Shown here piece after piece: positions 2,747 through 21,664 of a stretch of 64,000 nt of DNA. This DNA comes from Candidatus Undinarchaeales archaeon (lineage in GTDB: Archaea; SpSt-1190; JASMDC01). Location: contig JASMDC010000016.1 of assembly GCA_030753015.1 (NCBI GenBank), positions 10,773 to 74,772 of the forward strand, read 5' to 3'. The translations under genes and the position numbers were made by a program. The notes below the pieces were generated by a model, which saw only the letters and a list, made by a program, of their open reading frames with translations, was not told the DNA's origin and did not search any database. Positions within the stretch are counted from its first letter, which is position 1. Every line of letters starts with the position of its first letter.

Positions 2747-3301
2747 TCATCCGCCCTTCTTCGAAGGTTTCTCGACCGGCTTCTTCTCTGTAGAGGACGT
2801 CTTCTTACTCTCCGCTTTCTTCTTGGGCGCCACTTCCTTAGCAGGGGCCTCTTCCTTCTTCGTACCTTGAGGAACCGCTTTCTTGGAGATGAAGTAGATT
2901 GGTACCTCGGGTGTCATGACTTCCTCTCCGATAACATGGCAATCGAAGGCCTTGAGCGCATCAGGGGTCACTATGAACCATAGAGCTTTTCTCTTGTTCT
3001 TCAGCAGCACCCGGTCAGTTGTGGTTATCTTACAGAGCTTGCGGTGAGTGTGATATTCACCGACGACGTCCAGCTCACGTTGCTCGGCCATTTGGATTGC
3101 ACGCTCAGTGCCCTCTTTCTCCGGGATGAGATGATGATGCCACTGATCGGCAGTGTTCCGAATGTTGATTATATCATTGATGATGATCCGGTTCTCGGTC
3201 TCCTTCCCAACGACAATCCCGCACCGCACTTTACGCCGCATTTTATCAGCTTCTTCAAGCATCTTAGCAGCGGCCTGCTTATGCATGTACAGGGTCTTCA
3301 T
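2747..3301 (-). CDS. JAB1/MPN (Mov34) domain protein with Lys/Glu/Pro-rich tail
   Basis: CGIVVG and VVGEYHTH...TTTD resemble the JAMM motif. Confidence 0.7.
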   Translation of the reverse strand: MKTLYMHKQAAAKMLEEADKMRRKVRCGIVVGKETENRIIINDIINIRNTADQWHHHLIPEKEGTERAIQMAEQRELDVVGEYHTHRKLCKITTTDRVLLKNKRKALWFIVTPDALKAFDCHVIGEEVMTPEVPIYFISKKAVPQGTKKEEAPAKEVAPKKKAESKKTSSTEKKPVEKPSKKGG

Positions 3302-3337: not shown

Positions 3338-5215
3338 TTACGGCTTTCCCGGAATCGTGGAACGAGGACACAGGACAGCGAACACACGGTAGCCGTTCTG
3401 TTGGTAGACTTCTTCGAACACGGGAGCGGGGGTGCCATCCTGCGGCCGAAGGTAGGCATAATCTACATTGTACCGGTTGAGGATATCACAGTCCCCTGCG
3501 AGCATGCTCTTGGTATCTCGCCACTCCTGATCATAATCAAGACCATGACTGGAGAGCCACCCATTGTAGCCAATGAACGTTCGTCGGCCAGCCAGCGAAG
3601 TAATGGCATTATTGTGGTGGATATGCCCTTTGAAGCCCGCGTCGGCGCAGAACACGGCATCTGGTGGAGTGTTATCCCGGACCCACTCAGCTACCGCAAT
3701 GGCATCATCAGAGAAAAGGAGGGATGTACTCCCGAACATCGGTGTGAGGAAGAGTACGCTCGAGGCGAACAATGGAATTAGAATAAGACCCCCCAAGGGG
3801 CTCCATCGCATCGGGCGCTCAGCTCCCGCACAGATGGCAGGGAGAGATCCAATAAGCCAACAGAGCACTAGCTTGGAATTATCCCATTCCCATGGTTGGA
3901 GGATAACGACGTTGGTGATGAGCAACAGCGGTGCTGTCGCGACAACAAGGATGAGCGCTTTACGCGGAAGATGATAGAGACCGATGAGATACGTCAAGAG
4001 GATGACTCCGAGGTTCTTGCACCAGAACCAGATGACATCATTGGCCGTAGCCCCTTCGTCGACCATCCACCACCATTGCTGACGAATAAAACCCTCCTGT
4101 GAGAACTGACCTGACATAGAGACTACCTGAGGTGTCGCTAGTAGAATGACTGGCAAGACGAACAACAGAGCATCCTCCATCCCGCTGCGGTCCCGCACAT
4201 GGATCAATGCGAATCCGACGGCGACCACGGATATGGAGAGGAATGAGTGTGCATGGAAGAGCGGGAGGAGTCCGGCCATCAATCCTGCAAGCGCAAAGTG
4301 TCGTCGACGATTGTACCGGGTCAGAGAAATCCCCCGCACCAAGAGGAGGAGGACCGCTGAGAATACTGAGAGACCGATGAGAGTCGTACGCTGCGGAAGG
4401 AGGAACGCCCAGGTCGTATTATGAAGATGGTAGCCCGCTTGACCGAGCTCACCATCCGAGAAGGTCTTGAACATGATGGCGTGAAGGAACTGGAGACCTC
4501 CCGCGAAGAAGAACACGGGCGGGGCAAGGTCTGCGGCTCTGTTCTCACCGAGAGCCTCACGTACCAAGGCATAGACCAAGGTGGCAAGACATGCATAGAG
4601 GAGGATGTTCGGCAAAAGAACGGCAGACCGTAGGGAGGCTCCGAGATTCACGAGCACTGCTGAGACAAAATCGATCATGAATGGATAGTGGGCCGGTACC
4701 GAAGGCATAATGGGGTATACGGGCGGCAGGTTCGCTCCGTGGGCGATCGACGTAATGAACGCTAAATGGATGGGAAGGTCACCCCAGACTGGATGAATTG
4801 AATGGAGACCTCCGGATCCCTGACTGAGGAACACCCTTGACGAGATAAAATATAGCGGTGCGAGCACGACAAAGAGAGAGACACGGTAGGATAACGGGTA
4901 TGACGGAGCGTCATTCGTCCATCGCGAAAAGCGTAGGGAGATAAGGGCGAGCACGGACACGGTAAGGAAGGACAAACCGGGTGCGAGTCCCTCGTTCACA
5001 AGGGCGACGATGTAGATGACCGGACCAACAACAAGTACTCCGAGCACGAAGGCGAGGCAGCCACGGGCCTCCGAAGTCAGACCGTCCAACCGCGAGACTG
5101 GTCCGAATCCAACGACCATCACGAATGCAAGGAACAGCACATCGACGAGCACAGAACGGACTCGTGGATTAACAATAAAAATGGATGGTGAGCGCTTCAG
5201 AGCTCCCCCGACCAT
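3338..5215 (-). CDS. Polytopic membrane protein, probable GT-C-fold glycosyltransferase with C-terminal extracellular domain
   Basis: More than 10 TM segments, WGDLPIH loop, C-terminal AEWVRDNTPPDAVF...YNVDY...EEVY domain typical of archaeal GT-C/AglB-like proteins. Confidence 0.65.
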   Translation of the reverse strand: MVGGALKRSPSIFIVNPRVRSVLVDVLFLAFVMVVGFGPVSRLDGLTSEARGCLAFVLGVLVVGPVIYIVALVNEGLAPGLSFLTVSVLALISLRFSRWTNDAPSYPLSYRVSLFVVLAPLYFISSRVFLSQGSGGLHSIHPVWGDLPIHLAFITSIAHGANLPPVYPIMPSVPAHYPFMIDFVSAVLVNLGASLRSAVLLPNILLYACLATLVYALVREALGENRAADLAPPVFFFAGGLQFLHAIMFKTFSDGELGQAGYHLHNTTWAFLLPQRTTLIGLSVFSAVLLLLVRGISLTRYNRRRHFALAGLMAGLLPLFHAHSFLSISVVAVGFALIHVRDRSGMEDALLFVLPVILLATPQVVSMSGQFSQEGFIRQQWWWMVDEGATANDVIWFWCKNLGVILLTYLIGLYHLPRKALILVVATAPLLLITNVVILQPWEWDNSKLVLCWLIGSLPAICAGAERPMRWSPLGGLILIPLFASSVLFLTPMFGSTSLLFSDDAIAVAEWVRDNTPPDAVFCADAGFKGHIHHNNAITSLAGRRTFIGYNGWLSSHGLDYDQEWRDTKSMLAGDCDILNRYNVDYAYLRPQDGTPAPVFEEVYQQNGYRVFAVLCPRSTIPGKP

Positions 5216-13764: not shown

Positions 13765-14808
13765 TCACTCCCCCATCGAGAGGGTCCGAGCCCATTCCAC
13801 GATTCGTTCCATCCCTTCCCGTGGTCCAATCTTCGGAGTCCATCCGAGGGTGTCCCTGATACGGGAGAGGTCAGAGATGTACACCTTCTGGTCCGAAGGA
13901 CGCCAGTCAGCGAACGACAGCTCGCTCTGTATCCCGGTGAGCTCCTTGAGGATGTCTAGAAGCTCAAGCAAAGATAGCGTATTGTCTGGCCCTCCTCCGG
14001 TATTGAAGACTCCCTGGCGGAGCGTACTGTTGTAGAACGCATCATACGCCTCCACGAGATCGGTGACATACAGAACGTCACGCACCTGCTTCCCGTCTCC
14101 AAAGATCGTCAGGGGCTGTCCACTGAGCGTTGCCAAGGTGAACCACATCACCCATCCCTGGTCAGCCACTCCGAGCTGTCGTGTCCCGTAGATGCACGAC
14201 ATGCGGAACACGCCTGTGCGTAGTCCGTAGAGGTGGCCATAATCCTGGACATAGAGGTCGCCGGTGAGCTTCGAGCAGCCGTAGGGCGTATGCTCGCATC
14301 GGTCGATAGAGAACACCTCGGTTATCCCGGCTCGGTCGGCGAAGCGGTATCGTGTGTCCTCCTCACTAACCGGGACAGTATTGACGTTGTCCCCGTACAC
14401 CTTGTTGGTGGAGCAGTAGACAATAGCAGGATTGGAGTCCGAACGACGCGCTGCTTCAAGCACGTTGAATGTGCCCTGGGCGTTGACAGTGAAGTCCTGC
14501 CCGGGATCGGTGACAGAAGTCGTCACTGCCGTCTGTGCCGCAGTATGGACGATGAGGTCCACGTCCTGCATGAGCGGAAGCAGTGCTCCGAAATCACGGA
14601 CGTCCTGCTTGATGAGCTTGACCGATGGGAAGTTACGCTCGAGATAATCATGATTGTAGATCGGATTCACTACGCTCTGGCGCTTGAGGAGCTCGGCTCG
14701 GGATAGGTTGTCCACGCAGACCACCTCTGCTCCCCTCTTAGCATAGAACTCAGCCACGTGGGAACCGATGAATCCCATGCCGCCGGTGACGAGTACCTTC
14801 ATTGTCAT
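13765..14808 (-). CDS. NAD-dependent nucleotide-sugar epimerase (RfbE/CDP-paratose epimerase-like)
   Basis: TGGMGFIGS, AAQTAVTTS, STNKVYG, PYGCSK, RMSCIYG, GKQVRDVL. Confidence 0.85.
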   Translation of the reverse strand: MTMKVLVTGGMGFIGSHVAEFYAKRGAEVVCVDNLSRAELLKRQSVVNPIYNHDYLERNFPSVKLIKQDVRDFGALLPLMQDVDLIVHTAAQTAVTTSVTDPGQDFTVNAQGTFNVLEAARRSDSNPAIVYCSTNKVYGDNVNTVPVSEEDTRYRFADRAGITEVFSIDRCEHTPYGCSKLTGDLYVQDYGHLYGLRTGVFRMSCIYGTRQLGVADQGWVMWFTLATLSGQPLTIFGDGKQVRDVLYVTDLVEAYDAFYNSTLRQGVFNTGGGPDNTLSLLELLDILKELTGIQSELSFADWRPSDQKVYISDLSRIRDTLGWTPKIGPREGMERIVEWARTLSMGE

Positions 14809-14835
14809 ATTCTCCTTCATTCTAGCTCGATCACT

Positions 14836-15948
14836 CTAAATAAGACCCTTCTCCTCAAGCTCACGCTCGGCCTGGTCGAAACCGTCTTTCGCTTCGACAT
14901 CAGCACCCCAGCCGACGAGGTCGCGCATACCGTCAGCAAGCCCAATGGAAGGCTCGAAACCGAGGGACCGAATACGCGACATATCCGCGTAGCAGTGGCG
15001 GACGTCCCCCTTTCGGAACTCCTCTGTGATCCGTGGCCTCACGTCCGAACCATAGAGTTCTGCGAGGGTGCTAGCGATCTCTTTAATGGTCACGGGCGTA
15101 CCGCTACCAACGTTGAACACCTTCCCGTTGGCTTCGGGGCGCTCCATGCACAGGAGATTTGCGCGGACCACATCGTGAACGGAGATGAAGTCACGTGTCT
15201 GGAGGCCGTCCTCGAAGATAACGACAGGATTCCCGTTCTTGATACGTGAGGAGAATATCGCGCACACTCCTGTATAAGGATTCGAGAGCGACTGTCGAGG
15301 ACCGTACACGTTGAAGAACCGAAGGGCCGTAGCTCCGAAACCATAGGTCCTTCCGAGCATGAGCACCATATGCTCTTGGTCACGCTTGCCTAGAGCGTAC
15401 ACCGAGTTAGGATGCTGCTGCGCGTCCTCAGGTGTGGGTATCGGGCGACAAGCACCACCACAAGATGGACATACAGGTTCCCATTGCTTGAGACGCATCT
15501 GCTCCTTTCCACGGAGCGGTGGTCTGACGGTCCCACACCTGTCGCACGAGTACGCTCCCTCGCCGTACGTCGCCATCGACGAAGCGACGATGACCTTGCG
15601 CACGTCAGTCTCACGGTTGACGATCTCATTCATGAGCACGGCCGTACCCAATGAGTTGGACCGTACATAGTGTCCTATACGGTACATCGACTGCCCTACA
15701 CCGACCGCTGACGCAAAGTGGAAGACGACCGAGACGCCGCCCAGTGATGCACGTACATCATCTGGCTCGCACACGTCACCGATTATGTACTCGGCCCCCG
15801 GATTTAGGTAATCCGGCTTCTTTCCACCATGGACCTGTTCGTCCAGAGTATCGAGAACGCGTACAGTGTGCCCACCTGAGACCAAGGAGTCCACGAGGTG
15901 AGAGCCTATGAAGCCCGCTCCACCGGTGACGAGGACATGCTCGCTCAT
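14836..15948 (-). CDS. NAD-dependent epimerase/dehydratase
   Basis: TGGAGFIGS, VGVGQSMY, YALGK, RFFNVYGPRQ, RDFISV. Confidence 0.88.
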   Translation of the reverse strand: MSEHVLVTGGAGFIGSHLVDSLVSGGHTVRVLDTLDEQVHGGKKPDYLNPGAEYIIGDVCEPDDVRASLGGVSVVFHFASAVGVGQSMYRIGHYVRSNSLGTAVLMNEIVNRETDVRKVIVASSMATYGEGAYSCDRCGTVRPPLRGKEQMRLKQWEPVCPSCGGACRPIPTPEDAQQHPNSVYALGKRDQEHMVLMLGRTYGFGATALRFFNVYGPRQSLSNPYTGVCAIFSSRIKNGNPVVIFEDGLQTRDFISVHDVVRANLLCMERPEANGKVFNVGSGTPVTIKEIASTLAELYGSDVRPRITEEFRKGDVRHCYADMSRIRSLGFEPSIGLADGMRDLVGWGADVEAKDGFDQAERELEEKGLI

Positions 15949-16862
15949 CGTCCTTCCCTCGAACACTTTCGGATGTAGCCACATGCCTTTGTCGCTGCGA
16001 CAGCCCCCTGTGCGCAGGCCATCACCACTTGTGCCCAGCGACCCGTTACATCCCCTGCAGCATAGAGCCCTTGCACGTTGGTGCTCTGGTTATCGTCGAC
16101 GACGACGAAGGAGCGGTCCGTATCTGCTCCCAGTGAAGAGGCGATCTCGGTAGCGGGCATGGAGCCGACCTCGACGAACACGCCTTCCACTGCCAGCTCG
16201 CGAGTGCCGTCAGCGTCCTCTATGCTCACTGCTTCGACGAGAGGATCTCCCTTGATGGAGGTGATCCTGCTACCCTCGAGCACCTCGACCTTCTCTTTGT
16301 CCAGTCGTGCCACGAGGGACTCGTCAGCGGAGATGGCCCCTGAAGAGATGAGGATCACATGAGAGGCGACCTCAGAAAGGAGAAGAGCAGCATCGACCGC
16401 ACGGTTCCCATCGCCAGCGACGGCAACGGTCCGGTCGCGGAAGAGCGGACCGTCACAGGTCGCACAGTAGGAAACGCCCCGCCCACTCATTTCCTTCTCA
16501 CCGGGTACACCTAGACGCTGGACCTCGGTACCCGTGGCCAGTACTAAAGATGTCGAACTGTGCTCCACACCCGAAGCGCACCGGACGGTGAAGCCATCAT
16601 CGGACCGTGTCGCCTTGAGCACCTCGTCCACCTCGACTCCGACCTCGAACCCGCGCAGCTGTTTCTCCATGGTCTCCATGAGCTCTAGACCTGTAGTGGC
16701 GAGGACTCCCGGATAGTTCTCGATGAGATGGGCAGTCGCTGCTGTTCCGCCAGGCGCCCTACCGATGACGAGGGTCTTCATGCGACGGCGTGCTGCGTAG
16801 ATACCCGCAGCCATCCCAGCCGGGCCAAGTCCTATGACGATGAGGTCGTACCGCTCTCCCAT
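15945..16862 (-). CDS. trxB: Thioredoxin-disulfide reductase
   Basis: GLGPAG, IENYPG, GVSYCATCDG, AAGDVTG. Confidence 0.88.
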   Translation of the reverse strand: MGERYDLIVIGLGPAGMAAGIYAARRRMKTLVIGRAPGGTAATAHLIENYPGVLATTGLELMETMEKQLRGFEVGVEVDEVLKATRSDDGFTVRCASGVEHSSTSLVLATGTEVQRLGVPGEKEMSGRGVSYCATCDGPLFRDRTVAVAGDGNRAVDAALLLSEVASHVILISSGAISADESLVARLDKEKVEVLEGSRITSIKGDPLVEAVSIEDADGTRELAVEGVFVEVGSMPATEIASSLGADTDRSFVVVDDNQSTNVQGLYAAGDVTGRWAQVVMACAQGAVAATKACGYIRKCSREGR

Positions 16863-16948
16863 GTGCACACGGGATTCGGTGAACGTTAAAAAACTAGGGT
16901 AGGCGCCCATCCAGATAGGCGAGGACGGGTCCGCCACCGGCCCAAGTT

Positions 16949-17185
16949 TTAAAAGGGATGGTGATGTTCTCCCATTCTCCTAAACCGCCATTTGTCACAT
17001 AGGTTATCTTCTTTCATTTTCAGTGACATCGGCGCCGTGTCCTCTTCTTGAATGATATTGGACAAGCAGGAGCCACCACAACTTTCATGAAGTTGGATGA
17101 GCCCCTGCCGTCCGAGTTTGTCTCCGGGCAAGTATCCAGTAGTGTCGCAGCTGATAAAAGCATTTCGTTGGTCGATGGTCATCAT
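16949..17185 (-). pseudogene. Short ORF coupled to the DUF1670-like gene, possible remnant of a deleted third gene
   Basis: ATGA overlap at 17182-17185; the ORF runs through the left inverted repeat; no recognisable motif. Confidence 0.3.
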
Positions 17186-17946
17186 TCGTTTATCCCCCCA
17201 TTCTCGTACTCCTCGTAGAGCTTCAGGTAGTCGCGGACGAGGGGTCGGCTCATCTCAAGTGTCCTGGCGATCTCCTTGAGTGTCATCCCCTTCCGTGCGA
17301 GCAGCCTCACACGTTTGTAATCCTTGATGTACCGATCACACGACTCGATGGTGTGATCCGTTCTCTTTGAGATGTCGGGCGTCTGATATCCGTCGAGGTG
17401 GAGGCGGACGATGATGCTCTTGTGTGTGGTCGACCGACCAAGGTCATGAATGATGCCACGCGTCGGGACGATCTTGCCCTCGCGCTTCATGTAGCTCCTG
17501 ACATAGTTGCCGACGGTGAATCTTGAGATCTTCAGGATGGCCGCAACATCGTTCTGCGTGAGGAGGCCGCCTTGGTCGAAGGCGTCCTTGAAGAAGCGAA
17601 CGATGCACCTCTCCCGGACCTCGTAGATCGAGGCACCGGCCAAGAGCGCGTCTATGTCCTCCTTCGATACAAGCGTGAGCATCACAGGCACGCACCGCGT
17701 GTTCCTGGCGTTCTGTCCGTAGTACGGCTTGTCCCCCACACTGGCAGCGAGCCATGAGAATTGGCCCGGCATCCCCGGCTCCATGTCCTTGAGTTGCTTC
17801 TTGAAAACTCCCACGATATCCGAGGCGAACATATCCTGCACCTTGCTCCCGGACACGAACGGATAGTCCTCGTTCAGAAGATTCACAACAGCCTGGTGGA
17901 GGCCATACTCTACCTTCAACCTCACGGCCTCGGAGACCTTACCCAT
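17182..17946 (-). CDS. DUF1670-like protein (HTH-containing)
   Basis: AFDQGGLLTQNDVA, VPTRGIIHDLGRSTTHK, TDHTIESCDRYIKDY. Confidence 0.8.
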   Translation of the reverse strand: MGKVSEAVRLKVEYGLHQAVVNLLNEDYPFVSGSKVQDMFASDIVGVFKKQLKDMEPGMPGQFSWLAASVGDKPYYGQNARNTRCVPVMLTLVSKEDIDALLAGASIYEVRERCIVRFFKDAFDQGGLLTQNDVAAILKISRFTVGNYVRSYMKREGKIVPTRGIIHDLGRSTTHKSIIVRLHLDGYQTPDISKRTDHTIESCDRYIKDYKRVRLLARKGMTLKEIARTLEMSRPLVRDYLKLYEEYENGGINE

Positions 17947-18817
17947 GTGATCGCCCCGGAACGGTAAAGGTGGACTTCCCCTCAGGATCGGGAGTGTCGG
18001 AGGGACTCCATTTTTCCCCCCCAAACTCCGAGGCAGCGATCCTGTCGATCTTCTCTTTCATCTCCTCGTCCTCCGAATACCTCTCGTACAGCTCGAGGTA
18101 GTCGCGCACCACCCGATCCGAGTTACCCGTGATGATGCGGATCTCGCGGAGCGTGTGGCCGCCACGATGGAGAATGACCACACGGGAGAAATCCTTGATA
18201 TATCGCATGATCGAGGTCGGGGAGTGCTTTGTCCTGAGCTCTATCTCGGAGTACTCGTAATCCTGGAGGTGGAGCTCCACGATCTTGGCCTTGTGGCTGG
18301 TACCGGAACCCATATCCCTCATGGTGCCGCGGGTGGGGACCGTGATGCACTCTGTCTTCTGTATCTCCCTGATGTGACGCCCAATGGTGCGTGTGCTCTC
18401 ACCAAGGATGAGCGCGAGGTCTGCCTGCGTCAACAGGCCACCCTGCTCGAATGCCTCGTTCGCGAGTCGCTTGATACGAGATTTAAGGAGGTCACCCTGC
18501 GATCGCGAAGCGGTCGCTGCGTCAGCTTCGAGGTCCAGAACGGTGAGGTGGACGGCTACGAGCCTCGCGTCCGTGATCTTCACGCCGGCAGGGACATCCT
18601 TGGAGACTGCATGGAATACGATCTGCTCTCCACTTCGCTGCCCGCCCATGTACACGTCGAGGTAGGTGAGGATGTCTCGGGTCAGTCCACGGCAGATGGC
18701 CCTCGGGAACTGATAGTCCTCGATGAACATCGTGTAGATCTGATTTTTCAGGCTCTTGTCCACAATGCTGCGATATTCACTGTCGATCAATTCCGTACTC
18801 TCAGTAAGGTAAGGCAT
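17939..18817 (-). CDS. DUF1670-like protein (HTH-containing), paralog of the neighbouring gene
   Basis: AFEQGGLLTQADLA, VPTRGTMRDMGSGTSHK, TKHSPTSIMRYIKDF; GGTGA upstream of the ATG at 18817. Confidence 0.8.
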   Translation of the reverse strand: MPYLTESTELIDSEYRSIVDKSLKNQIYTMFIEDYQFPRAICRGLTRDILTYLDVYMGGQRSGEQIVFHAVSKDVPAGVKITDARLVAVHLTVLDLEADAATASRSQGDLLKSRIKRLANEAFEQGGLLTQADLALILGESTRTIGRHIREIQKTECITVPTRGTMRDMGSGTSHKAKIVELHLQDYEYSEIELRTKHSPTSIMRYIKDFSRVVILHRGGHTLREIRIITGNSDRVVRDYLELYERYSEDEEMKEKIDRIAASEFGGEKWSPSDTPDPEGKSTFTVPGRSHG

Positions 18818-18893
18818 CTCTGTCACCATCAAGCAAGAACGGGAGACGGAAGAGCAATCACTTAAGTATTCCGACATTTGGCGGTATCTGAGA

Positions 18894-20888
18894 ATGTTAC
18901 ATAGAGCTCGTTTGCTCATGGTAGTCGTCATGGTCGCGTGCGTCCTGTCGGTCGCACCCAATTACGGGGACAACGACTTTCCCGTCGCACCGTTCACGGA
19001 ACAGCCGACCTGTGGTAAGGAGCTCTGTATCGTATGGAATTGCGCTTCGACCAAGCTCCCTGCAACCAACGATTACCTCACATGTTCAGAGTGGGCCTGC
19101 ACGAAGATGAACGATCGGGTATGCGCACGATGGGAGTGCCTCACCGTTGATGTTCCCGGCTCGGACGACCAGACCTGTGCTTCGTTCAACTGCACGGAGT
19201 CCAAGGATGGACGATGTGTCGATTGGGATTGCACCGACACCGACCTCCCATCGACAAACGACCGCGATACATGCAGCGAGTACCGGTGCGAACGGATCAT
19301 CGACGGTACCTGCAGGGTATGGAGATGCACAGTCGCGCCCTTTCCCGTGGACATCGAGGCCCCGCCCAACAGGCGCCCCAACTCACGACAAGCATGCTCT
19401 CGGTTCGATTGCACTGTCTGGGACGGTGACCGATGCTTTTCGTGGACCTGCACTTACTCTATCGGATATCAATCCTGTTCCAAGCTTGACTGCGTCTCCC
19501 GTCATGGGACCTCCTGTGATGCCTGGAACTGTACCGAGATGGATGTGCCGGGCCATGGTGGATACGAGGCGTGCGCCACATGGGAATGCGGGGCATGGGA
19601 CCGTATCACCTTGAACACCACATGCTCGGGCTGCACCGAGCACAACCACTGCGAATCAGGCTGCTGCCTTCTCGGCGAGTGCATCGATAAGGTCGCCGAT
19701 CCGGACAAGGACCGTTCCACATGCATCTGCTCAGGAGGTACGTGGAAGGACGAGAAGTGTTGCGGTGACGATCCCGGGGAGAGCTGGTGCTCCAGCGAGG
19801 GTGCATGCATCTCAGCGAACTGGGTCCCCGGAACGGACAGCGAGTTCTATTGCTCTCAGTGCAAGAAGGGCTCATGGAACGAGGACCGATGCTGCGTCGA
19901 TGACGAGAGCTGGTGCGGGCGTTGGGGGCGATGCCTGTACGGGACATGGCTGCCGTTGTGCAAGCAGTGCTACAGTTGCAAGAACGGAGTATGCATCTAT
20001 ACCTGCAAACCGACGGTCCAGAACGGCGACAAGAAACCTGATGATTGCATCTCCCTTGGCGGTATCTGGCGTGATGGGAAGTGCTGTGGCGACGACAAGG
20101 ACGCGGACGGGTACGGTGAGAGCTGGATCGGAACGACCGGTGAGTGTCGTGGTGGGTTCTGGTTCGAGCTCTCTGACAACCAGTTAAAGGGCCGCCTTGA
20201 AGAGGAGCGGGATAAGGAGGAGGCATCACGCAAGTTCTCAGTCCCTGAGAGCGTGCTCGTGCTCCTCGTAGTCGTGGGTTGCGGTAGCTTCCTCTACTTC
20301 TTCAATAAGCGATCGGATGACGCGGAACCCCCACCAGAACCGGGTCTCCTACCCACGCTCGAGGACGAGGGAACACCGAGCGAAGAGGCCGCGATCGATG
20401 ACGAGGACATCATTGATATGGACGAGTTCGAGGAGGAGTTCGGCGATGGTGCCGGTGGAGAAGACCAGGAACTCGAGAAAGAGGGCCAGCCTGAATCCGA
20501 AGAGGGTGAGCGCGATCTCAGCACTGACGAGATGCTCGGCGAGTTCGAATCAGAGGTTACAGAGGATGAGGATGAACTCCTCAAGGATGTAGATGAGCTC
20601 GAAGAAGGTGAAAAGCCTGAAGGGAAAGCGCCCTCATCAGCAGAGGAGGATGCGGCCACTAAGGATCCCGACGAGGACCTCTTCGCAGACCTGGGCTTCG
20701 ACGGCTACGGAAACGAGGGAGGAAGGCCTTCTCCGCGCGCTACCCGAGGATACACTGATCCCCGCGTATCGGAGCTGCAAGCCAAGCTAGACAAACTCGA
20801 CACACAGCTGGCGAAGGGGAAACTGAGCCCGGAACTCCACAATAAGATGCGGGAACGGGCCGAGAAAGAGCTCTCTGACCTTTCCTAG
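18894..20888 (+). CDS. Cysteine-rich single-pass membrane protein with acidic cytoplasmic tail and SHOCT-like C-terminus
   Basis: Signal peptide, 12 CxxWxC-type motifs, CCGDD-type repeats, TM (VLVLLVVVGCGSFLYFF), D/E-rich tail, LDKLDTQLAKGKLSPE. Confidence 0.85.
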   Translation: MLHRARLLMVVVMVACVLSVAPNYGDNDFPVAPFTEQPTCGKELCIVWNCASTKLPATNDYLTCSEWACTKMNDRVCARWECLTVDVPGSDDQTCASFNCTESKDGRCVDWDCTDTDLPSTNDRDTCSEYRCERIIDGTCRVWRCTVAPFPVDIEAPPNRRPNSRQACSRFDCTVWDGDRCFSWTCTYSIGYQSCSKLDCVSRHGTSCDAWNCTEMDVPGHGGYEACATWECGAWDRITLNTTCSGCTEHNHCESGCCLLGECIDKVADPDKDRSTCICSGGTWKDEKCCGDDPGESWCSSEGACISANWVPGTDSEFYCSQCKKGSWNEDRCCVDDESWCGRWGRCLYGTWLPLCKQCYSCKNGVCIYTCKPTVQNGDKKPDDCISLGGIWRDGKCCGDDKDADGYGESWIGTTGECRGGFWFELSDNQLKGRLEEERDKEEASRKFSVPESVLVLLVVVGCGSFLYFFNKRSDDAEPPPEPGLLPTLEDEGTPSEEAAIDDEDIIDMDEFEEEFGDGAGGEDQELEKEGQPESEEGERDLSTDEMLGEFESEVTEDEDELLKDVDELEEGEKPEGKAPSSAEEDAATKDPDEDLFADLGFDGYGNEGGRPSPRATRGYTDPRVSELQAKLDKLDTQLAKGKLSPELHNKMRERAEKELSDLS

Positions 20889-20957
20889 GTACGGAAGACG
20901 CGGTCTTAGGTTCATTTTATAAAATATACCCCCGGATACTTGTATCGGTGGTATGCA

Positions 20958-21323
20958 ATGGCTGAGACCGTTAAATTATCGATACTCTACAGCGTTGTCG
21001 TGAGCGGTATCCTTGTACTGGCCTTCGTCATCGCTTCGTTCTACGTCCCGCTCCTCGAGCTGGACCCTGAGAAGTTCATCGTGAACCTGCAGACGAACCA
21101 GTTCATCATCTCGTTCATCTTCGACTTCGTTTCGCTGGCTGCAGTGGCTCTCGGATTCGCCTCCCTCCTCCAGATCATGGAGAACGTGGAGACCGAGCTC
21201 GTCGATGGTCTTCTCGCGATCGCCCGGACAACGGCCCGGACCGCGGAGAACATCAAGGAGATCAAGGCCAAGAGCGAGGCACCGGAAAAGAAGGATAAAC
21301 CGAAGAAGGACAAGAAGGAGTAA
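20958..21323 (+). CDS. Small 2-TM membrane protein
   Basis: Two hydrophobic helices and a Lys-rich tail; TTTTATAAAA upstream. Confidence 0.75.
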   Translation: MAETVKLSILYSVVVSGILVLAFVIASFYVPLLELDPEKFIVNLQTNQFIISFIFDFVSLAAVALGFASLLQIMENVETELVDGLLAIARTTARTAENIKEIKAKSEAPEKKDKPKKDKKE

Positions 21324-21346
21324 CAACTCCTACGGTTGGTGGTGGC

Positions 21347-21664
21347 ATGGCAACACGGACTAAACTCTCCTACCTCTACAGTATCGCCGTGAGCGCAATG
21401 CTCATATTCGCCGCTGTGATAGCGTCGAGCTTCCTCTCGTTCTCCGGTACTGACGTTGAATCCTTCATAACCGAGCTCTACTCCAACGCGCTCATCCTCA
21501 TCCTCATCGGGATCATCGCCGCTATTGCGGTGATCTCCCTTGGTTTCTCGTCAATGATCACGCAGTCGGAGCGCTCAAACGGCGACCTCTGCGCTCGCCT
21601 CGATGCGATCGAGCACCAGCTCGAGAAGATGAACGAACCGGAAGAGGACGCCAAAAAGGATTAA
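21347..21664 (+). CDS. Small 2-TM membrane protein, paralog of the preceding gene
   Basis: KLSYLYSIAVS versus KLSILYSVVVS; LGFSS versus LGFAS. Confidence 0.75.
   Translation: MATRTKLSYLYSIAVSAMLIFAAVIASSFLSFSGTDVESFITELYSNALILILIGIIAAIAVISLGFSSMITQSERSNGDLCARLDAIEHQLEKMNEPEEDAKKD

Follow-up and report, generated by a model that had tools for sequence, protein, structure and literature searches.

The DUF1670 gene pair and its terminal repeats

The DNA analysed here is a 64,000-nucleotide stretch from a Candidatus Undinarchaeales archaeon (assembly GCA_030753015.1, contig JASMDC010000016.1, positions 10,773 to 74,772), hereafter the window, to which all coordinates refer unless another sequence is named. 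This marine archaeon carries a 1909-bp element at window positions 16979-18887, which we call the DUF1670 element after the family of its two genes, A and B, both on the minus strand. Gene A (17939-18829; alternative ATG at 18817) encodes an upstream-type DUF1670 protein of 296 amino acids (aa) and gene B (17182-17946) a downstream-type protein of 254 aa; the genes overlap by 8 nt, and the proteins are 45% identical across 171 aa. Both are full-length members of Pfam DUF1670 (PF07900; A: E 3.2e-67, 226.6 bits; B: E 6.9e-73, 245.1 bits; gathering score 25 bits), each spanning nearly the whole 220-position model, and B also matches HTH_23, HTH_28 and HTH_29 above their Pfam cut-offs. The Pfam entry gives no function, and we found no description of DUF1670 (PF07900, IPR012872) in the published literature, a search that did not extend to ISfinder. 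Comparison with a relative of the element at 62% identity (L215) gave ratios of non-synonymous to synonymous change (dN/dS) of 0.23 for A and 0.33 for B, which points to purifying selection on both genes. Two 151-nt contigs of an RNA (metatranscriptome) library fall inside gene B (17523-17836), a weak hint of transcription, as DNA carry-over is possible.

A preliminary description of the region, made from its sequence alone, had reported two overlapping paralogous DUF1670-like genes that share a VPTRG...D.G...HK motif, and both points hold: P-T-R-G, D, G and H-K show little or no variation in either paralogue type. In B numbering, P-T-R-G, D168, H175-K176, H198 and R205-Y206 are kept in alignments of both types. 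An AlphaFold2 model of B, with a mean predicted local distance difference test (pLDDT) score of 82.6, shows two long helices and a beta-hairpin, and then helices arranged as about three helix-turn-helix modules. The conserved residues lie in the arm before the second of these modules, at its start and on its third helix. From this placement in the model we infer that they read the equally conserved DNA core of the element ends rather than form an active site. A predicted complex of A and B scored 0.07 and was used neither for nor against any interpretation.

The two genes are closely enclosed by inverted repeats, described earlier as arms at 16973-16996 and 18873-18896. The arms are indeed complementary at 19/24 positions, a value attained in none of 300 shuffles of both flanking regions (best 18); the region also holds many short inverted pairs of similar quality (22 listed). 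The true repeat of the element is CCTAAACCGCCATTTGTC versus ATACCGCCAAATGTC. Its gene-distal (3') terminal copy, CCTAAACCGCCATTTGTCAC, occupies 16979-16998 with the core CATTTGTC at 16989-16996, and its gene-proximal (5') copy, GACATTTGGCGGTAT, occupies 18873-18887 with the core at 18873-18880. The 3' terminal repeat is homologous to the ...TTTAG(A/T) termini of five relatives (L010, L012, L016, L024 and L043). The inner part of the arms, around the core CAWWTGWC, is element DNA, and the outer part consists of host target and the target duplication. In the archaeon's genome (G000; 3.85 Mb, 117 contigs, 98.9% complete) we found one DUF1670 pair and one copy of each repeat arm; no further copies of the termini and no further DUF1670 genes were detected in it.

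An uninterrupted allele and a second insertion site

To one genome of the same genus (G001), the window aligns at 86% identity over 14800-16976 and 18890-21400, with only 2 nt between the two blocks in G001. The uninterrupted site there reads ...CCCATT-AC-GAGAATGG... and contains both the left half of the host target (CATT, 16973-16976) and its right half (GAGAATG, 18890-18896), in which a host gene has its start codon. The CATTCTC that makes up the outer 7 bp of the repeat, previously taken as perfectly repeated element DNA, must be reassigned: CATT and GAGAATG belong to the host, and CT is the target duplication. An excision footprint in G001 was considered and rejected, because GAGAATG, with the host start codon in it, is host DNA.

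A second insertion site emerged from contigs of four public runs aligned to window positions 16400-19500; these were assembled contigs, not raw reads. One contig tracks the element to 18889 and then runs on as CAACATGGTG..., and two others join at 16973, coming from ...CACCTTCGAGAAACTCAA. The flanks of this second site belong to a TnpB-like gene, and both junctions lie within that gene. The copy there is >99% identical to the window element, and its junctions occur in contigs of three public runs and in one metagenome contig. The latter (L214) shows the junction directly, as ...CAACAT-C-CT-CCTAAACC.... The TnpB-like gene is uninterrupted in two contigs of G000 and in G001, where it reads ...AAACTCAACATCCTCAACATGGTG....

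Taken jointly, the window site, the tnpB site and the uninterrupted tnpB copies define the ends of the element. With E for the element, the window site has the structure CCCATT-CT-E-CT-GAGAATG and the tnpB site AACATC-CT-E-CT-CAACATGG; boundaries at 16979 and 18887 with CT on either side (16977-16978 and 18888-18889) are the sole solution that suits both sites. Contig X13 matches the window through 18889 and continues into tnpB sequence (CAACATGG...). A 1-bp duplication is also compatible with the joint solution and 2 bp suits every site, giving a range of 1-2 bp; a 3-bp duplication (TCT) was rejected, as the tnpB junction has CCT on one side. When delimited likewise, L215 measures exactly 1909 bp in a different context and is flanked by AA on both sides. 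The placement of the element at 16979-18887 rests on the host flanks being 2 nt apart in G001 and on the divergence of metagenome contigs at both ends.

The window and tnpB targets are the same at 10/13 positions. We considered hairpins as the feature recognised at the targets and rejected them, as uninterrupted targets fold no better than shuffled sequences (z 0.06, -1.41 and -0.22). The targets appear to be alike in sequence, and we claim no more than that.

Together, the empty site in G001 and the >99% identical copy at a second site bear out the reading of the locus as a mobile element, and the DUF1670 element is well supported as a mobile insertion sequence. The preliminary description had named a lack of these termini around DUF1670 pairs elsewhere, or a syntenic pair in relatives with no empty allele, as evidence that would refute its reading; the empty allele is present in G001, and pairs elsewhere carry homologous termini, as detailed below.

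The uninterrupted TnpB-like loci lie at G000:C31:49681-49698 (L192), G000:C117:26613-26630 (L194) and G001:C6 (L193), with the translation ...ITFEKLNILNMV.NHHLAKSI.DASWN.... They seemingly belong to an element of IS200/IS605 type, present in G000 in at least two copies, and in other samples one allele of the gene is the second insertion site. Positions 1-2140 of L214 run from the window's upstream flank through the element into the tnpB flank that borders the second site; the contig is a chimera assembled through the repeat or else a true recombinant of two copies.

DUF1670 pairs in other genomes

Relatives of the element are widespread, with methanogens and ANME archaea among their hosts. A word-index search returned 23 relatives of B, a good number of them on short contigs (1-3.6 kb), and an alignment-based scan of species-representative genomes found 63 loci in Methanophagales, Methanoperedens, Methanosarcinales, Methanoregula, Methanothrix, Thermoplasmatota, Syntrophoarchaeum and Chloroflexota, with a few in other bacterial bins; 19 of the 63 are on contigs of ≤2.5 kb. 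Scanning genome contigs with a single protein query did not find these relatives, and an alignment query was needed. A 14-mer scan of genome contigs gave at least 120 matches, mostly chance, with four relevant loci among the matches listed, and a plasmid collection gave no match. At a larger scale, a profile search of 1.84 billion representative proteins yielded 1780 clusters (50% identity) at E ≤0.001, 1033 of them at ≤1e-10. In genomes reached through the loci, Pfam matches numbered 5-18 in each of four genomes and 4 in a fifth, some being fragments or containing stop codons.

The two-gene arrangement is shared across the family. When open reading frames (ORFs) from six-frame translation were scored with profiles, nearly all intact loci had an upstream-type gene followed by a downstream-type gene, and in most of these the second gene begins before the first has ended. 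In a maximum-likelihood phylogeny built from 20 proteins of each type, upstream and downstream sequences part at 100/99, and the topologies within the two clades mirror each other, not host taxonomy. Fused forms also occur: proteins of 526-546 aa contain two DUF1670 stretches, and proteins of 930-952 aa (P0026, P0028, P0029 and P0030) contain three. Judged by these protein comparisons, the DUF1670 pair is an ancient co-evolving unit. P0133 (400 aa) was grouped with the three-stretch proteins, and one other DUF1670 protein has a DnaG-type CHC2 zinc finger as its fusion partner (E 3e-8).

The ends of the elements are likewise shared. Termini can be aligned between hosts, and the core CAWWTGWC is found again at the termini of pairs from many archaea and from Chloroflexota, often inside a 10-bp near-palindrome such as GACATATGTC. 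Of the 36 loci that have both genes, 19 show an upstream core, 23 a downstream core and 12 a core on each side, many of the loci without a detected core being broken by contig ends or having variant cores. The ends of the subfamily to which the window copy belongs share longer blocks, with a 3' end of ...ACCTAT-nG-TCAAATGGGAGTTTAG(A/T). On a Candidatus Scotarchaeum contig (L015), the end types TTTTCTAAT... and ATGTAAATAC... seem to have changed places around the genes, with L010 as the reference.

Movement is recorded in one other genome, in which two copies (L012 and L013) share 1703 bp at 99.94% identity and have unrelated flanks. The L012 copy sits in a host repeat: all six uninterrupted copies of this repeat (6/6) read ...TTCATTCCC-AAATA-TTTGC..., and the filled site has AAATA on both sides. 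This doubling of AAATA directly demonstrates that target duplication occurs in the DUF1670 family. By site, the duplications are CT in the window and in tnpB, and AA in L012, L013 and L215. The L012 target (3000-3112 and 4798-4916; L208-L213) is a short repeat with many copies across several related Methanosarcinales-group genomes, with adjacent matches at query positions 1202-1324 and 2999-3116.

Conserved 3' DNA and the neighbouring host gene

The roughly 200 bp between gene B and the end of the element are its best conserved DNA, with 85-87% identity to L215 over 16997-17181 (minus strand) compared with about 70% for the genes. A 78-codon ORF at 16949-17185 covers this region and reads through the terminal repeat into host DNA. 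As a candidate third protein-coding gene (69% identical in L215) it was rejected, since its proportions of non-synonymous and synonymous differences from L215 are about equal (pN 0.146, pS 0.145; dN/dS about 1), which indicates constraint on DNA or RNA and not on protein. The earlier statement that the element carries only a gene pair is not fully accurate, given this 3' DNA with its ORF. The region contains an inner copy of the inverted repeat, GTGACATCGGCGCC, at 17023-17036, which is able to pair with the terminal copy. Its predicted fold has a z-score of -2.5, with one compensatory pair in two sequences, a signal too small to claim an RNA, and an Rfam search of 16700-19100 returned one chance row (E 0.06) and nothing else.

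On the host side, the element interrupts the region in front of a 664-aa ORF that starts at 18894 (18894-20888, plus strand). A TATA-like box, TTTTAAAA, lies at 16947-16954; in G001 it is 28 nt upstream of the host ATG, and the insertion has moved it 1.9 kb away. The position of this box suggests that the element sits between the likely promoter and the start codon of the host gene. An AT-rich box within the element end (about 18860-18870), about 29 nt before the host ATG, could substitute for the likely promoter severed by the insertion, to judge from its spacing. The 664-aa protein is cysteine-rich, with a signal-like N-terminus and an acidic tail, and has no Pfam match.

Comparison with known transposition systems

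We compared the DUF1670 element with known systems that resemble it in architecture or in protein sequence. IS630/Tc1-mariner elements are small, have short terminal inverted repeats and duplicate a TA target. The DUF1670 element is similarly small, with short terminal inverted repeats, a 2-bp target duplication and paired helix-turn-helix modules linked by a basic arm, and residues 212-251 of B match the NCBIfam IS630 model NF033545 (E 4e-6); a match to Pfam HTH_Tnp_Tc3_1 has E 7e-4. However, the NF033545 match covers only positions 4-43 of 299 and reaches 26.5 bits against a cut-off of 100, Pfam matched no DDE/D domain in A or B, the duplicated target is CT or AA rather than TA, and there are two paralogous genes rather than one. 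IS21 shares with the DUF1670 element two adjacent, coupled genes (istA/istB) within short inverted repeats. Here too the sequence match is limited to part of B (NF033546, residues 214-243, 22.4 bits against a cut-off of 160); IS21 encodes a DDE protein, IstA, and an AAA+ protein, IstB, whereas neither domain was found in A or B, which are paralogues of each other.

Two further likenesses concern the proteins alone. The best Foldseek row was Cbp1 (PDB 2lvs; E 0.064, probability 0.97), a multi-helix-turn-helix protein that binds CRISPR repeats; both have tandem helix-turn-helix modules, and Cbp1 reads a repeated DNA motif, as we propose for A and B. With a TM-score of 0.14 by query, this is a general likeness between helix-turn-helix arrays and not a family relationship. 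The invariant R, H, K, H, R and Y recall the residue set of tyrosine recombinases, but they fall within about 45 positions, on a recognition helix and the start of a helix-turn-helix in the model, and the DUF1670 element makes a target duplication. In addition, Pfam PF00589 (Phage_integrase) did not match A or B at E ≤0.01, and the fold-search rows list no integrase, although a family's lack of a row there is no ground for excluding it.

A putative transposase built from DNA-binding modules

A and B are the only conserved genes inside the element ends, and they co-evolve, occur as fusions and are under selection; from this it would follow that they are the transposition proteins of the element. 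We lean slightly towards the view that the element represents an undescribed family of autonomous insertion sequences, with the DUF1670 pair as its transposase. A bolder form of this reading, which we regard as possible but would not bet on, is that an A/B heteromer is a transposase of a new mechanistic class, built of helix-turn-helix modules and a small N-terminal domain, without RNase-H (DDE), tyrosine, serine, HUH or Cas1 folds, and driving both archaeal and bacterial insertion sequences.

In the mechanism that we propose, A and B would be products of translationally coupled genes and would function jointly. Each protein would comprise about three helix-turn-helix modules besides a helical hairpin and a beta-hairpin, with the invariant residues (PTRG arm, H-K, H and R-Y) on or beside the second module. 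These residues would read the partly palindromic core GnCAWWTGnC near each end, of which the 3' end offers extra inner copies. The A/B complex would then pair both ends and insert the element with duplication of 2 bp, preferring related targets, such as CAT(T/C)-CT-(G/C)A..ATG here and A-rich AA sites in relatives. Finally, the pair may also cut and join DNA through an active site of unrecognised type. That A and B themselves perform catalysis is the option we prefer, and this putative, unproven activity is the most tentative step of the model.

Several observations weigh against this model. Searches of A and B with Pfam, NCBIfam, PHROGs and PADLOC returned helix-turn-helix matches only and no catalytic family, as the preliminary description had anticipated in recognising no recombinase, and a profile search of PDB sequences gave nothing below E 0.06. 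Foldseek searches with the B model, whole and as residues 1-175, had no hit at E ≤0.001; for the same two queries, the best VIA-align matches (Z 7.0-7.2) were to a plain helical hairpin, followed by single helix-turn-helix domains (Z 5-6). DNA recognition is a sufficient explanation for the invariant polar residues. At the level of the locus, the only two uninterrupted sites available read AC (G001) and CT (tnpB paralogue), and as G001 has AC in place of CT, the duplication at the window site is reconstructed, not observed. No skipped or circular joints were seen among the aligned contigs, which as contigs are uninformative on excision. Furthermore, the single database relative of the 78-codon ORF is 82% identical and ends in the same host-encoded tail, so that the same site is seemingly occupied in a diverged relative and, on this comparison, the window copy may be old. 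The shared site could reflect either old age or repeated insertion into a preferred target.

The main rival accepts that the element moves and denies that it is catalytically autonomous: A and B would recognise and pair the ends, and an enzyme encoded elsewhere, such as a host nuclease, topoisomerase or recombinase, or the transposase of another element, would cut and join them. The modules detectable in A and B are all of the DNA-binding kind, and the invariant residues are on helix-turn-helix parts, just as such a division of labour would have it. However, the family spans many archaeal and bacterial phyla, so a helper would need to be universal, and this genome has neither another element bearing these ends nor an IS630 transposase above the cut-off. 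Fused forms speak in the same direction, as they add no enzyme domain: of 12 long proteins scanned, 11 had DUF1670 or helix-turn-helix matches only, and the remaining one adds the CHC2 zinc finger. On balance we consider recruitment of an outside enzyme rather unlikely, if the most serious competitor. The preliminary description had offered a related option, with the pair as accessory proteins to a transposase since lost. We disfavour it, as related elements span 1.65-1.9 kb and are too compact to hold a third gene, the termini were found nowhere else in the genome, and the genes are under purifying selection. Its other option, that the pair is the recombination enzyme itself, is the best reading, with catalysis putative.

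Two further explanations deny present mobility or the element itself. The window copy might be a resident, possibly domesticated regulator pair left by an old insertion, immobile and supplying the promoter of the host gene. The seemingly occupied site in the diverged relative of the ORF would suit such a history, as would the separation of the TATA-like box from the host start codon by the insertion; the >99% identical copy at a second site in other samples shows that this same element has moved recently, and we judge this explanation improbable. That a chance inverted repeat lies beside an ordinary insertion or deletion, with no defined element, might be suspected from the 22 inverted pairs of similar quality in the region and from the host origin of the outer 7 bp of the repeat as first described. 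Yet shuffled flanks never attained the observed complementarity, the inner repeat is homologous to element termini in other phyla, and the junctions are sharp at two sites, which makes coincidence very hard to credit.

To our knowledge, every well-studied prokaryotic transposon relies on one of a few catalytic folds. The widespread DUF1670 family acts as an insertion sequence though its sole proteins resemble DNA binders; either a new DNA-cleaving and -joining enzyme is hidden in A and B, or the family has a new mode of borrowing a host enzyme. A two-gene, 1.9-kb system makes both possibilities directly testable. As DUF1670 genes are now annotated as of unknown function, insertions of this family are overlooked, and they also break metagenome assemblies.

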